From Escherichia coli (GTDB lineage Bacteria; Pseudomonadota; Gammaproteobacteria; Enterobacterales; Enterobacteriaceae): 64,000 bases of DNA. Made by a program: the position numbers. Below, piece by piece: positions 25,801 to 31,800 of this stretch (positions are counted from its first letter, which is position 1; each line of letters starts with the position of its first letter). The DNA is taken from assembly GCF_045037415.1 (NCBI RefSeq), contig NZ_CP173440.1; one strand, 5' to 3'.

Positions 25801-28800
25801 TTAACTCAGCAACTGGGCGAGCAGGCTCCCGATCGTGTGACCCTTTACCGAATACTGGAACGGCTAATGCAGGTCAGTATTGTCCAGCGTTATACCGACT
25901 CGGCAAGAACTCAGCGTTTCGCTCTGACCCAACGGGCTGCCGTAGGACTTTTTGAATGCGATAACTGCCATCATGTTATTCCTATTGAGCAGGATCCAGC
26001 CCTGGAAGCGGCCATTGAATTGGTAAAATCACATCTCACTGGACATGGTATGACCGAACGGGAAATTACCCTTTCCAGTCATGGTATCTGTCCGGACTGT
26101 AATCGTACTATCACCAAATAATTTTTTTCTTATTCCGGACGACTGTTAATTAGCGCCAGGCGTGTTCGTGTGCTGCTATCTAAAAATAATGAGGTAAACG
26201 TAATGATTAAACTAACAAACACGCTTGGTATGCAAAAGGAGCTATTAGTTCCGGTTAAAGAGAGCAAAATCGGCATGTATGTATGCGGCGTGACGGTTTA
26301 TGACCTTTGCCATCTTGGGCACGCCAGAACCTTTGTAGCTTTTGATATGATTGTCCGCTATCTGCGTTTTCGCGGATACGATGTGACTTTCGTGCGTAAC
26401 ATTACTGATATAGATGATAAAATTATTCAGCGCGCCCGTGATACGGGAGAGGACTGGCGCAGCCTGACAGAGCGGATGGTGCATGAAATGCACATTGATT
26501 TTGCAAAGTTAGGCATCCTGCCGCCAAACATCGAACCTCGTCCCACAGAGCACATCCCACAAATCATCAGTATGATCGAACGACTTCTGCATCGACAATT
26601 TGCTTACATTGCAGAGAATGGTGACGTCATGTTCTCCACTGCATCGGCAAAAGGCTATGGAAAGCTTTCGGGACAGGATATTACCATGCTTCGTGCCGGG
26701 ACCCGCATCGAAGTGAATGAGTATAAACGCGATCCGCTGGATTTTGTTCTCTGGAAGCGGGCAAAACCCGGCGAGCCCGTCTGGCCATCACCCTGGGGTG
26801 AAGGGAGACCTGGCTGGCATATTGAATGTTCCGCAATGAACTGCCATTACCTTGGTACCCATTTCGACATTCATGGCGGTGGTTCTGACCTGATATTTCC
26901 CCATCATGAAAATGAGATTGCCCAATCCACCTCCGCCAATGATGGCCCTTACGTAAATTACTGGCTTCACACCGGCATGGTGACGGTGAATAAAGAGAAG
27001 ATGTCGAAATCGCTGAATAACTTTTTTACCCTGCGCGATATTCTGAATCGGTTCGATGCCCAGAGTGTGCGCTTCTTCCTGCTAAGCGCACATTATCGTA
27101 AGCCGCTGAATTATAGCGAGGAGAATATTCACCTCGCGCGCGCCTCGCTGACACGGCTCTACACCGCATGCCAGTTCGCTGACGGGTCTCGATCTGAACA
27201 GCACGATGCATGGCGGGCCAGATTCTGTGAGGCAATGGATGATGATTTCAATACACCCCAGGCGCTTGCCATTTTATTTGAACTGACAAGAGAGATTAAC
27301 AGGCTTTGCGGAACGAATGATGATGAAGCCGCAGCACTTGCCACCACGCTGAAAGACCTGGGGAATGTGCTGGGTTTGCTTGAACAATCAGCGGATGCCT
27401 TTTTGAAAAACCGCAGTGATCTTCATCCTGCAGAACTGCAACTTATTGAAAAGTTAATTCACCAACGCAGTGAGGCACGACGTATGGGCAAGTGGGACAA
27501 GGCCGATCGTTTAAGAAATGAATTAGCGGAGCAAGGCATTGATCTTGAAGATGTCGGCGAAAATACCTCATGGCGTATCCGATAAGTTGTCCCTCTGGAT
27601 GTAAAAAATTTCAATATCAATTGTTATGTTATAACGTAATGCAAAGGGTAATTTTATGAACCAACCACGCGAAGTCGTTATTGTCGGTGCGGGTCCGGCC
27701 GGGGTGGGTATGGCGGCGCTTCTTCGTCGTAGTGCCATACAGGATATCCTGGTCGTTGACAGTCACGAAGTAGGTGCCTCCTTTATGCGCTGGCCGGAAG
27801 AAACCCGTTTTATTACTCCTTCTTTTTTTTCCAATCCGTTTGGACAACCAGACCTGAACTCTGTGACCCCTGACAGTTCATTGGCGCTTTTCTGCGGTGA
27901 AGAACATCCTGGGGGGAAAACTTATGCCAGTTACCTTAAGGCCGTACTGGATGAGTATCAGATACCCGTCATGGCTCCCGCCAGGATTGCAAAGGTTGCG
28001 TTGCTCAGTTCCGGTAATTTTATACTGATAACAGAAGCAGGAGAGAAGCTGGAAACACGCTCTTTAATATGGGCTACAGGCGAATTCCAGTTCCCAGACC
28101 GGCAGATTTTTCCTGGAGCAGATATTTGTTGCCATTACGGTGATGTGACCAGCTGGAAGGATTTCAGGAAAGGTGAATACATTGTTATAGGCGGCTATGA
28201 AAGCGCGGTGGATGCCGCTGTAAACCTGCTGGAAAATGGCTCATCGGTAAAAATGTTAACCCGCTCAGCCCCTTGGTCAACTAACCACATCAGCGATCCC
28301 AGTCTATCGCTTTCCCCTTATACCCGTGAGCGTTTGAACAGAGTGATGAATCACCGTCTTTTCGAAATTTATGAAGATGCGGATGTCTGTGAAGTAATCA
28401 GAATGCCCGGCCCGGGAAGTTCGTACAAAGTCCATACCACAAACGGACGCGCCTGGGCTACTGACGAGGTGCCTGTGCTTGCTACCGGCTTCCAGTGTGG
28501 CGGAGGAGCAAGGCAACTGGCTGCTTTTTTTGAATGGAATGATGATGGCTATCCGGTCTTAACGGACGAAGACTGCTCAACCCTTTTTCCTGGTTTGTAC
28601 CTTGTCGGCCCTCATGTGCGGCATGCCGGTAATATTTATTGCTTTATCTATAAGTTCCGTCAGCGCTTTCCCGTCGTGGCAGAAAGTATCACGCGTCATC
28701 TGGGCCTGTCCTCTGAAGGAGTACGGGACTGGTGGGTTCTGCCTTCAGAGCCTGACTGCTGTGCCGATGAGGACTGTGCGTGCTGAGGTCCGTGTTTATG

Positions 28801-31800
28801 CAATCATTCGTTTTAATGGGATTAGAAAGTGCAGGAAAATCTACCCTGTTTAATATCCTGACGGAAAGTGCTGCCAGTGATGAGCGTAATTTCAGGGGAT
28901 CGACCGTTGTATGTCGGGAAGGTCTCATTAATGATGCAGGGATCTGCCTGGTTGATACGCCAGGCATACGTTTTCAGAGCGACAGTGAAACCACAAAACT
29001 CGCCCTTGATGCGCTAAATCAGCATGATGGCATTCTGGTGGTTCTGCGGGCCACGCACGCTCAGCAGGAGTGGCAAACGCTCTGTCACCTCATACCGCCA
29101 CAGGCAAAACACGTTGTTATACTCCTGACCTTTGCTGATAAGATCAGAAAGGGCCTTCTGGAAGTGACTGAATACCTGAGTGAAACATCAGGTGCGCCGG
29201 TACTGGCAGTCAATGCCCGGGAAGCTGGCAGCAATGTTCGCCAGGGAATAGTGCAGTTGCTGTTGCAGGATAAACCTGCACCCTCCGCTGTCTCTTTACC
29301 CCGTCAAAAGATACCGGTAATTAATCTGCTGGCTGAATTTCCTCAACAAACGATATTTGAACATCGTTGGTGTGGAAAAGTTGCTGCAATAGTATGCCTT
29401 TTCCTGCTGTTTGCCGTTCCGGTATGGGGGGCATGGCTGCTGTCAGATTTTATTCAGCCTGTCATTGACAGTGCGGTTATTCAGCCGCTTAAGAATATAA
29501 CGACGAGCTGGCCCGACGTTCTGAAGACACTATTTGTCGGCAATTACGGTCTTTTTAGTCTGGGACTTTATTCGTTTGTATGGGCATTTCCTGTGGTGGT
29601 ACTGATAGGGTTGTCTCTTTCGCTGACTGACGACAGTGGACTTAAGGAAAGAATTACAGCGACGCTGGATCCCTGGTTGAGAAAACTCGGCCTCAGCGGT
29701 CAGGACCTTATTCCTGTATTAAGCGGTTTCGGCTGTAATGTCGTGGCGGTTTTTCAGAGCCGTTCGTGTTCGCGATGCACCCGGCATGCTTGTATAAGTA
29801 TGATTAGCTTTGGGTCCGCTTGCAGCTATCAGACGGGGGCGACGCTTTCTCTTTTTAATGCCGCCCATCAACCATGGCTCTTTATCCCCTATCTCAGTCT
29901 GCTGTTTTTCACAGGCGCAATACATACGCGCCTCTGGAACGGGTCGTTGAAGCCTGGCCAAAACCAGCGTCTGACAGAGATCACCTGGCTACAATGGCCA
30001 CGCTGGCGAAATGTGACATGGATGCTGAAAAATATCCTCCGTCAGTTCATTACGCAAGCCATGCCGTTATTCCTGATTATCTGCATTGTTGCGGGGATGC
30101 TTGATTACGCAGGGATCACTCGCTGGCTGAGTGAAACGACGGCACCTTTACTTCATCTTTTTAAACTGCCAGCAGAACTGATGCCCGGGATCATTTTTTC
30201 ACTGCTAAGGAAAGATGGTTTGATGGTGCTCAATCAGGATGGCGGCAGCTTAATACAGTCTCTCAGCACATCTCAGTTACTGCTACTTGTCTGGCTCGCC
30301 TCTACGTTGATGGCCTGCCTTGTCACGGTATTTACCATCGCCCGGGAAATAAACTGGCGGTTTGCAGCAGCAGTGGCGGGAAAACAGGTATTAAGTTCTC
30401 TGGTGGTGGCTCTGGTGATATCCCAGTTATTTATTCATGAGGCATAAGTATGATCCCCAAGACTTACCAGCAATGGTACCGGTGCATCACAGAAGAATGT
30501 GGAATTCCCTTGACGCAGGCATTTATTGCATCCCGTCTGGCAGTCCTTGAGTCCCAAGATCATCAGGAAACCAGACGTTTTGTCTCGCTATATGGGCAAC
30601 AACATCTGAATAGTGTTGTACAGTGGTTCAAAAAAGCTGGGGAAGAATTGTTGTAAATCTGCCCCCTTTTCGCTTTCATACGAAGGCACCCGACAAATGC
30701 GGGTGCCTTCGATTCATTCTTCGAACCAGGGCTCAACAGGATCGGAATAATGCCGCCACTTTTGAGGCCCTTCTGCCATTTCTGCATCCGTTAACAGGGC
30801 GGAATCCAGTCTGTTGCGCAGTTCTGATTCATTCATATCCATTCCAATAAAAACGAGTTCCTGACGGGCATCACCAATGCCATCTATCCAGTTAGACATG
30901 ATGAACTTCAGTGACTCAGCATCCTCTGGCCAACGTCCTTTCGGCACACTAGCCCACCACATGCCCCCCAGCCCCTGGCGCGCAATGCCACCTGCCTGCG
31001 ACCATGAACCTGCGAATTCCGGACGGCTGGCCAGCCAGAAGTAACCTTTTGATCTGACGACTCCATCCAGCTCATTTTCCATCACCTGCCAGAAACGGGT
31101 CGGATGAAAAGGCCGGCGGGCGCGAAAGACAAAGCTGGTGATCCCATATTCTTCTGTCTCCGGCGTATGTTCGCCCCGGAGTTCTTTAAGCCAGCCGGGT
31201 GCCTGAGCGGCCTGCTCGAAATCAAACAGCCCGGTATTAAGTATGTTGCCCAGCGGAACCTGTCCAAACTGTGAAACAACGATTCTGGCCCGTGGATTAA
31301 GCGAACGTAAAATCGCCATCAGTTTTTCTTTTTGCGCTTCACTGATAAGGTCAACTTTATTAAGGACCAGCACATCACAGAATTCAATCTGATCGATCAG
31401 CAAGTCAACAACGCTCCTTTCATCACCTTCACCTAACGATTCTCCGCGTGACTGAATGCTGTCTTCCGAACCGTAGTCTTTCAGAAAATTGTACGCATCC
31501 ACCACAGTGACCATGGTGTCAAGGCGGGCCACCGTCGAAAGGCTTTCACCGTCATCGCCCGCAAAGGTAAATGTTTCAGCAACAGGCAGAGGCTCAGATA
31601 TACCGGTGGACTCAATGACAAGCTGATCAAAACGCCCTTCTTTTGCCAGACGATTAACTTCGAGAAGAAGATCTTCGCGCAATGTGCAGCAAATGCAACC
31701 GTTGCTCATTTCTACCAGTTTTTCATCAGTCCGGGAGAGTTCTGCACCACCTTCCCTCACAAGGGCAGCATCAATATTCACCTCAGACATATCATTAACA

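Follow-up and report, generated by a model that had tools for sequence, protein, structure and literature searches.

We report a three-gene operon that lies behind a binding site (box) for the repressor Zur in a 64,000-nucleotide stretch of Escherichia coli DNA (NCBI RefSeq assembly GCF_045037415.1, contig NZ_CP173440.1; the whole stretch is referred to as the window, and positions are counted from its first letter). The operon encodes a flavoprotein that ends in a tail of four cysteines (Cys4), a FeoB-like GTPase-permease, and a protein of 68 amino acids (aa) that we call p68. The genes for the flavoprotein and the FeoB-like protein are co-inherited across phyla, and the module that they form sits among zinc-starvation genes, namely COG0523 chaperones, ZnuABC and zinc-independent paralogues. 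The invariant part of the module is the tailed flavoprotein, and the permease is interchangeable. Our tentative interpretation, to which we give somewhat less than an even chance, is that the operon is the Klebsiella copy of a widespread Zur-repressed module that would act as a thiolate relay for Zn(II) or another thiophilic metal.

The three-gene operon and its Zur box

The flavoprotein, FeoB-like and p68 genes form one operon behind a Zur box. The features of the operon are as follows, where FAD is flavin adenine dinucleotide and NAD(P)H is reduced nicotinamide adenine dinucleotide (phosphate).

27621-27636, no strand assigned: Zur box TTGTTATGTTATAACG, read in the sequence, with its palindromic core GTTATGTTATAAC at 27623-27635; the box lies 19 nucleotides (nt) upstream of the flavoprotein start codon (ATG at 27656)
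27656-28786, plus strand: flavoprotein of 376 aa, FAD/NAD(P)H type, Pyr_redox_3 by Pfam, member of the tailed family
28748-28783, plus strand: acidic Cys4 C-terminal tail EPDCCADEDCAC of the flavoprotein, residues 365-376, containing the end CCADEDCAC
28798-30447, plus strand: FeoB-like GTPase-permease of 549 aa, with the G domain at about residues 1-160 and the membrane domain at about 192-546
29734-29823, plus strand: gate motif 1 and the cysteine cluster of the subfamily, GFGC313NVVAVFQSRSC324SRC327TRHAC332...SAC342SYQ
30450-30656, plus strand: p68, an all-alpha protein of 68 aa with a conserved C12-x4-C17 pair, an optional accessory
30681-30711, plus strand: terminator-like hairpin with a 12-bp stem that includes 9 GC pairs, between the p68 gene and the convergent zigA gene

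The core at 27623-27635 is an exact match to the Zur core GTTATNNTATAAC, which occurs ten times in the window when both strands are searched and one mismatch is allowed, compared to 1.04 expected matches; none of 100 shuffled sequences reached ten. No Fur box was found anywhere in the 64-kb window at up to three mismatches, and a scan for consensus promoters detected no promoter-like site at the Zur box, with regional matches no more numerous than in shuffled sequences. The ribosome-binding sites of the FeoB-like and p68 genes overlap or closely follow the preceding stop codons, p68 having a GAGG of its own, and the hairpin at 30681-30711 closes the three-gene unit. The tightly coupled, Zur-fronted unit proposed in a preliminary description of this DNA is thus borne out by the box, the GAGG sites, the short gaps and the terminator, with two distances corrected: the box had been placed 17 rather than 19 nt upstream of the operon, and the p68 start 3 rather than 2 nt past the FeoB-like stop codon. 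None of the outcomes that the same description listed as fatal to its proposal, and that are open to computation, was encountered. In particular, with regard to a response to iron and Fur, what the window contains on the sequence side is Zur boxes and no Fur box.

The first gene encodes the 376-aa FAD/NAD(P) oxidoreductase that had been announced, with its open reading frame, its N-terminal motif VVIVGAGPAG and its acidic cysteine cluster EPDCCADEDCAC all confirmed, and the cysteine-rich tail proves to be a conserved hallmark of a protein family. The Pfam profile Pyr_redox_3 (PF13738) scores 313.9 bits against a cut-off of 30 and is covered over positions 1-305 of 305. Members of the family share GAGPAG and IGGYES-x-DAA, and an alignment of 18 diverse flavoproteins shows C329 (within CFIYKFR) and the tail residues C368, C369, C374 and C376 to be invariant. 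Of the 69 homologues collected from genome loci, nearly all carry a tail of the form CC-x2-4-C-x-C, as do all 16 beta- and gamma-proteobacterial homologues examined (...GNSDCCEGCEC). Tails in Firmicutes and Chloroflexota read, for example, ...DLSCCGEDCQC, and those in Verrucomicrobiota read ...CCxDCQC followed by an extension of about 20 aa. The window flavoprotein has all features of the tailed family, i.e., the Pyr_redox_3 core, the CFIYKFRxRF motif and the C-terminal CC-x2-4-C-x-C. The nearest solved structure is PDB 3D1C (9.9e-64 against the window flavoprotein and 4.5e-75 against a Paenibacillus member), which we take to be a structural-genomics entry from Staphylococcus aureus; it is annotated as a 'flavin-containing putative monooxygenase', and its sequence ends in ...DDYSCCEVSCTC (SCCEVSCTC), that is, it is itself a tailed homologue.

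Weaker relatives of the flavoprotein include YpdA/Bdr (4e-20; Bdr structure 7A7B, 1.9e-9), thioredoxin reductase (TrxR) and, by NCBIfam, ArsO. Several named families were considered and rejected. Thioredoxin reductase, the name that many sources use, scores 40.1 bits against a cut-off of 343.45 (TIGR01292), and no CxxC occurs outside the tail. The catalytic cysteine of the bacillithiol disulfide reductase Bdr sits in an N-terminal GGGPCG motif; the window protein has GAGPAG with no cysteine, and its YpdA/Bdr score is 71.8 against 339.9 bits (TIGR04018). For the flavin monooxygenase ArsO the score is 46.5 against 425 bits (NF040505, 3.2e-12), with residues 6-206 only matched. A metal-ion reductase of the MerA type would be suggested by the C-terminal CC, but there is no CxxxxC pair and no NCBIfam MerA match. 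Finally, AhpF and glutathione reductase score far below their curated cut-offs, and neither CxxC nor CxxxxC occurs outside the tail.

The second gene encodes the FeoB-family protein of about 550 aa that had been recognized from its motifs, all of which were found: GLESAGKST (G1), DTPG (G3) and GFGCNV. Residues 10-149 match Pfam FeoB_N with 50.6 bits (cut-off 27), and two stretches match Gate with 67.3 bits. Starting instead at the GTG at 28780 would yield 555 aa; the ATG at 28798 is favored because the N-termini of homologues agree with it and because a GAGG 9 nt upstream overlaps the flavoprotein stop codon. The start is annotated inconsistently in existing records, the E. coli record using 28798 and the K. 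pneumoniae plasmid record using the equivalent of 28816; the latter would remove the first beta-strand of the G domain, and 28798 fits the homologues. Homologues of about 550 aa that are 45-52% identical are found in Enterobacterales, Paenibacillaceae, Verrucomicrobiota, Chloroflexota and Myxococcota.

Like the FeoB of the FeoABC system, the protein has an N-terminal G domain fused to a polytopic permease, two Gate motifs and both gate cysteines. At the position expected for G4, FeoB-like proteins have TFxD, compared to the textbook NxxD. Scores remain below the FeoB equivalog cut-offs (TIGR00437, 118.6 against 315.65 bits; PRK09554, 51.1 against 683), and identity to E. coli FeoB is 25%, with GFGC313N aligned to GFGC429N and MAC507LVT lined up with VPC675ISV, though the latter only in a very weak BLASTP segment. 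Compared to E. coli FeoB, which has 773 aa, the membrane domain is, judging by model and alignment, shorter, the helical domain that follows the G domain is apparently reduced or missing, and the G1 motif is GLESxGKS instead of GNPNSGKT. The operon also differs from FeoABC in having neither FeoA nor FeoC and in being associated with Zur rather than Fur. A further difference is an additional C-x2-C-x4-C after gate motif 1. Residues C313, C324, C327, C332, C342, C429 and C507 are invariant in 49 FeoB-like homologues, the pattern GC[NS]...C-x2-C-x4-C is present in 97 of 105 FeoB-like open reading frames (7 of the other 8 keep the CxxC), and a pairwise alignment reveals nothing equivalent to the cluster after GFGCNV in E. 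coli FeoB. The FeoB-like proteins, about 550 aa long, form a subfamily of their own.

An AlphaFold2 model of the protein has a predicted local distance difference test score (pLDDT) of 83.4. The top Foldseek matches of this model are NFeoB G domains, and a CNT-type nucleoside transporter is also matched; the PDB yielded G-domain structures only and no full-length FeoB on which the cysteine cluster could be placed. Segment 271-416 contains 14 lysines and arginines compared to 6 aspartates and glutamates, conserved arginines flank the cluster, and the segment is preceded by two clear transmembrane segments and the G domain. Since this positively charged segment follows two transmembrane segments after a cytoplasmic G domain, the cysteine cluster probably faces the cytoplasm.

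For the third protein, p68, neither Pfam nor NCBIfam gives a match, and BLASTP detects no resemblance to FeoA or FeoC of E. coli, in agreement with the earlier statement that both are missing; furthermore, no FeoA Pfam match was found among the called genes of five annotated neighborhoods. The predicted model of p68 contains four helices and is all-alpha, whereas FeoA folds as an SH3-like barrel and FeoC as a winged helix. An iterative hidden Markov model search on stop-to-stop open reading frames drifted out of frame after round 2, and the first-pass matches were kept. The family comprises 334 representative clusters, nearly all of 65-90 aa, with W9, C12, C17, R29 and G49 more than 90% conserved. 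The gene is limited to Enterobacterales, Stutzerimonas and a few Verrucomicrobiota and metagenomic loci, and its position varies; it also accompanies zigA (L133, L140, L162; loci are cited by L numbers) and the alternative permease pairs described below (L159, L167). Thus p68 represents a genuine family, yet an optional one that occurs in a minority of loci.

Conservation of the module and exchange of its partners

A scan of one genome per species recovered 80 FeoB-like loci, including Enterobacterales, Stutzerimonas, Achromobacter, many Paenibacillaceae, Verrucomicrobiota, Chloroflexota, Myxococcota, Kiritimatiellae and others. The tailed flavoprotein gene adjoins the FeoB-like gene on the same strand in 66 of these loci, representing at least five phyla, and a COG0523 gene is present in 54 of the 80. 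The flavoprotein gene comes first in Enterobacterales, Paenibacillaceae and Chloroflexota, and the FeoB-like gene comes first in many Verrucomicrobiota, several of which have gaps of 0-3 nt between the two genes, which argues for translational coupling over mere proximity. Annotated neighborhoods are in keeping with Zur control: in Paenibacillus periandrae the order is flavoprotein, FeoB-like, zur, znuCBA, COG0523 and L33 paralogue, and in Prosthecobacter hisI and two COG0523 genes adjoin the pair, with ZnuA/ZnuABC nearby in one locus. In Prosthecobacter we also observe a conserved 206-aa protein with no Pfam match whose gene overlaps the end of the flavoprotein gene (L083:10908-11528, L084:6629-7249) and which could be a lineage-specific accessory like p68.

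Each of the 8 gamma-proteobacterial loci that have an intact pair carries a Zur box of the gamma-proteobacterial type, located some 30-85 nt ahead of the flavoprotein gene. The Firmicutes-type box TCGTAATNATTACGA, with at most two mismatches, is found in 20 of 25 Paenibacillaceae-type loci, either upstream of the flavoprotein gene or upstream of a zigA-flavoprotein-FeoB-like operon. Two distinct operators at the same place in two phyla constitute strong comparative evidence for membership in the Zur regulon. The preliminary description had left to a wider census whether its three genes travel together and always behind Zur boxes. The flavoprotein and the short FeoB do travel together across phyla, in the 66 loci mentioned above, and the 68-aa gene accompanies them in a minority; the box recurs upstream in the 8 and 20 loci just described.

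The FeoB-like protein is not the only partner of the tailed flavoprotein. An SBF-family permease whose closest match is ACR3 (58-70 bits, cut-off 282.8) takes this place in Burkholderia pseudomallei, Halomonas and Methylophaga: its gene is translationally coupled to the flavoprotein gene, with an overlap of 7 nt, and the permease has an invariant cysteine in MSPCTDWFLGFTRL (MSPCTDW) and an invariant glutamate in EFPH. These pairs lie in Zur islands with COG0523, FolE2, QueD, PyrC-like, HisI and Fur-family genes and with genes for cysteinyl- and threonyl-tRNA synthetases (CysRS, ThrRS). A survey from the flavoprotein side yielded 80 metagenomic loci, in which the downstream neighbor was counted by hand: FeoB-like in about 35, ACR3/SBF-like in about 13, ZnuA-ZnuC-ZnuB-like in at least 2, and nothing recognizable in the rest. 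Loci beside znu-like genes (recognized from sequence features only) lack both the FeoB-like and the SBF gene. In Myxococcota-type loci, where the FeoB-like gene has no flavoprotein beside it, its neighbor is a Metallophos_2 phosphoesterase with an internal CGC and a C-terminal C-x-C. The alternative arrangements are the following.

L088:7001-9168, L089:7001-9126, L090:7001-9117: flavoprotein and ACR3/SBF-like permease pairs
L103-L106, L110-L112, L114, L115, L121, L157, L159, L164, L167: further ACR3/SBF-like pairs
L130:141-3849, L150:2-3604: tailed flavoprotein beside znuA/znuC/znuB-like genes
L119:2121-6224: znuA-like gene directly upstream of the flavoprotein gene
L058:1608-2501, L062:11649-12545 (minus strand), L064:9076-9996, L077:5416-6306: Metallophos_2 neighbor of the FeoB-like gene

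A paralogue of CysRS, which is the immediate upstream neighbor of the operon in the window, is also found beside or near tailed flavoproteins in unrelated lineages, including Burkholderia, Halomonas and several metagenomic loci (L088:4721-6136, L089:5577-6962, L104, L135, L164-L166), and in Methylophaga a SufE gene (L090:6552-7004) stands where the CysRS paralogue stands in other lineages. These recurrent neighbors could hint at a link to cysteine or sulfur. Such a link would suit an alternative in which the permease moves a low-molecular-weight thiol, a disulfide or a metal-thiolate complex and the flavoprotein is an NAD(P)H reductase or S-oxygenase, so that the pair would adjust the zinc-buffering thiol pool or free zinc from thiolate sites in starvation. 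The nearest named relatives of the flavoprotein, i.e., YpdA/Bdr, TrxR and ArsO, are indeed thiol-disulfide enzymes and flavin monooxygenases, and the alternative partner belongs to the SBF/ACR3 superfamily, whose members carry organic anions or As(III). On the other hand, the thiol-reductase families all score far below their cut-offs, the body of the flavoprotein has neither CxxC nor CxxxxC and no cysteine in GAGPAG, and the lineages that have the module use differing low-molecular-weight thiols, glutathione or bacillithiol. The alternative also leaves the pairing with ZnuABC unexplained, and we consider it quite improbable.

Neither gene is strictly tied to the other, as tailed flavoproteins are solitary in L126, L127, L154 and L156 and FeoB-like genes are without a partner in L042, L066 and L085. 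These cases, the three unrelated transporter types that adjoin the flavoprotein, and the fact that the rest of the island in the window consists of stand-alone paralogues are what one would expect if co-regulation were all that the genes have in common, with the flavoprotein being a zinc-independent stand-in for some zinc-dependent oxidoreductase or a client that would load itself via its tail and the adjacent permease reflecting shared Zur control. The gaps of a few nucleotides or overlaps, found in both gene orders and with two unrelated permeases, the adjacency in most of the FeoB-like loci across phyla, and the recurrence of a C-terminal C-x-C on the phosphoesterase that replaces the flavoprotein beside the FeoB-like gene speak against co-regulation as the whole explanation, which makes it very doubtful in our judgment. 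One degraded locus was observed in Phytobacter massiliensis (L006:10001-11278), where the FeoB-like sequence matches residues 124-549 only, no flavoprotein was detected upstream, and p68, zigA and hisI are kept, with zigA apparently in two pieces; this locus is probably a deletion remnant.

A possible thiolate relay

The conserved special features of the module are all thiol clusters, namely the gate cysteines and Cys3 cluster of the permease, the Cys4 tail of the flavoprotein, the Cx4C pair of p68 and the invariant cysteine of the ACR3-like permease, and a thiolate relay for a soft divalent cation, most plausibly Zn(II), is the simplest model. COG0523 proteins, in turn, carry a CxCC motif. 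In the proposed model, the operon would be expressed only under zinc scarcity. The FeoB-like protein would act as a permease, gated by nucleotide, through which Zn(II) or a different thiophilic divalent cation passes, and the Cys4 tail of the flavoprotein, flexible and metallothionein-like, would receive the ion from the Cys-x2-Cys-x4-Cys cluster of the permease. The role of the FAD/NAD(P)H domain would be either to maintain these exposed thiols in the reduced state or to gate metal release by thiol redox chemistry; the metal would then pass to COG0523 chaperones such as ZigA and from there to client proteins, with the 68-aa Cx4C protein as an optional adaptor. Zinc import by the module is a putative function. 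A broader version appears to us rather unlikely. In it, the flavoprotein would represent a novel type of cytoplasmic enzyme for metal handling that docks on FeoB-like, ACR3-like and ZnuABC transporters, removes zinc or another thiophilic metal from them by thiol redox chemistry and passes it to COG0523 proteins in a redox-driven thiolate relay for zinc acquisition.

The closest analogy for the proposed handoff may be MerT-MerA, in which an NAD(P)H flavoprotein accepts a thiophilic metal from a membrane transporter with cysteine pairs and captures it by a mobile C-terminal tail of vicinal cysteines (Cys-Cys). The architecture is analogous and not homologous: the flavoprotein in the present operon is of the Pyr_redox_3 type and has no CxxxxC disulfide, Zn(II) is not reducible, and the regulator is Zur instead of MerR. 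The closest precedent for a flavoprotein associated with a cation transporter may be CzcD-CzcO of Bacillus subtilis, where the flavoprotein CzcO is encoded with the divalent-cation transporter CzcD and is reported to enhance CzcD activity. One homologue of the window flavoprotein (P0204) bears the Joint Genome Institute (JGI) label 'CzcD-associated flavoprotein CzcO' (COG2072). CzcD differs in being an efflux pump of the cation-diffusion-facilitator type that metal excess induces, whereas the module is induced by zinc starvation. Beta- and gamma-proteobacterial tailed flavoproteins coupled to an ACR3/SBF-like permease also resemble the ACR3-ArsO arrangement of ars clusters; however, the scores (58-70 against 282.8 bits for acr3, 46.5 against 425 for ArsO) are far too low, and the context is Zur islands, not ars operons.

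The preliminary description considered the architecture to be undescribed as far as its author was aware. In fact, the co-localization of the genes and their response to Zur and calprotectin are already on record, while their function is still unassigned. COG0523 subgroup 14 was depicted beside ZnuA, 'TrxB' and 'FeoB' in supplementary Fig. S13 of Haas et al. 2009 (PMC2770081). In S. aureus, NWMN_2481-2483 are up 43-, 83- and 152-fold with calprotectin and respond also to sulfide-induced zinc limitation (Peng et al., PMC5480029), and HG001_02621-24 have Zur boxes upstream, were previously predicted as Zur targets and were seen in a proteome comparison with a zur deletion (PMC13586535). The S. 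aureus genes are labeled COG0523, 'putative iron transporter' and 'putative oxidoreductase', and their function is described only as 'putative' in all of these papers. This operon apparently represents the same module, NWMN_2482 being the putative FeoB-like member; it differs in that the COG0523 gene lies inside the operon and the 68-aa gene is not reported. The S. aureus orthologues provide the only experimental support for Zur control. No functional study of the module and no assigned function was found in the literature searched. New in the present analysis are the two family-defining cysteine motifs, the swapping of permease types, the p68 family and the conservation of Zur operators across phyla.

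A different metal must be considered as well. The FeoB-like protein might be a Zur-controlled importer of Fe(II), Mn(II) or Co(II) that supplies the island's zinc-independent paralogues, among them FolE2, gamma-carbonic anhydrase, PyrC-like and HisI, in which case the flavoprotein would keep Fe(II) or thiol ligands reduced. The protein retains the FeoB gate cysteine motifs and the G domain, its Foldseek matches are NFeoB G domains, and the island consists largely of alternative metalloenzymes. Among FeoB homologues there are some with other substrates, such as the manganese-handling FeoB2 of Porphyromonas gingivalis, and metals other than zinc serve FolE2 and the gamma-carbonic anhydrase Cam. 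On the opposite side are the lack of a Fur box in the window and of FeoA/FeoC, scores far below the FeoB equivalog cut-offs, the additional Cys3 cluster and the Cys4 tail, which favor softer ions, and the association of the flavoprotein with ZnuABC in some loci and with zinc chaperones of the COG0523 family. Moreover, the S. aureus adcA cntA double mutant, which grows very poorly without zinc despite having retained the operon, was not rescued by Mn, Fe, Ni or Co (PMC5666155). Overall, we regard a substitute metal as unlikely.

The thiolate relay for zinc faces several objections of its own. The growth defect of the adcA cntA mutant indicates that the S. aureus module is no autonomous high-affinity zinc importer under those conditions. 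The conserved FeoB gate motifs mean that Fe(II) or Mn(II) may be substrates. Zinc is redox-inert, and the model accounts for a flavin reductase in an indirect way only. We infer the cytoplasmic placement of the cysteine cluster from topology and charge. Finally, the solitary flavoproteins and partnerless FeoB-like genes imply that physical coupling is not obligatory.

The S. aureus module is among the most strongly calprotectin-induced genes, and the module spans Firmicutes to Verrucomicrobiota and Chloroflexota and is carried by a K. pneumoniae virulence plasmid and some E. coli chromosomes. Should zinc be what the module handles, the defenses against nutritional immunity would gain a transporter family and a redox enzyme, the step that precedes the COG0523 chaperones would become visible, and 3D1C would have a function. 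If the relay exists as proposed, a FeoB-family protein would be a zinc transporter, and the relay would be one without characterized precedent. The swapping of partners and the conserved cysteine motifs provide precise targets for mutagenesis.

The surrounding zinc-sparing island

The operon sits in a Zur-controlled zinc-sparing island of a pLVPK-type K. pneumoniae plasmid. Positions 24300-33100 (8.8 kb) are 100% identical to large IncHI1B/IncFIB hybrid virulence plasmids of K. pneumoniae, with 696 matching plasmid records. The three-gene region is present in 51 of 5,426 complete E. coli genomes, 33 times on the chromosome. In addition to the operon, the island contains hemB, dihydroorotase, M14 peptidase, ThrRS paralogue, DUF1460 protein, carbonic anhydrase, folE2, dksA, COG0523 GTPase, Fur-family regulator, CysRS paralogue, zigA, hisI and a second Fur/Zur-like regulator. 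Neighboring genes and further Zur-box matches in the window are listed below.

24333-24345: Zur-box match upstream of dksA-folE2-carbonic anhydrase
26170-27585, plus strand: CysRS paralogue (TIGR00435, 568 bits), immediately upstream of the operon
30714-31937, minus strand: ZigA, a COG0523 zinc metallochaperone GTPase (NCBIfam NF038288, 702 bits against 600), convergent with the operon
32396-32413: Zur-box match between hisI-zigA and the second Fur-family gene
36539-36551: Zur-box match where an ABC/MFS/SBP_bac_5 operon begins (36512-42819; this operon may encode a metallophore importer)
57546-57558: Zur-box match upstream of a FecCD/Peripla_BP_2 ABC operon (58000-60809)
60936-60948: Zur-box match preceding a truncated CobW_C fragment (61130-61552)

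The site table of Haas et al. 2009 lists only the operators of hisI2-yciC and dksA2-folE2-cam and not the box at 27621-27636 (PMC2770081). The two Fur-family regulators of the island (25669-26121 and 32496-33020) score 31.6 and 84.5 bits, below the NCBIfam Zur cut-off of 167, and the counterparts of the second in chromosomal copies from K. pneumoniae and relatives (L002-L004) share only about 54-57% identity with it. On the chromosome of E. coli O55:H7 DEC5E (L171, 1-27101), the neighbors of the island are an integrase and the yersiniabactin locus (ybtS, ybtX, ybtQ, ybtP); this copy has hisI as a pseudogene and no annotation of the 68-aa gene. In the window, transposase genes flank the island, with DDE_Tnp_1 at 56332-57300 and two short open reading frames at 33396-34202 that are probable insertion sequence fragments, which fits the island as mobile cargo.

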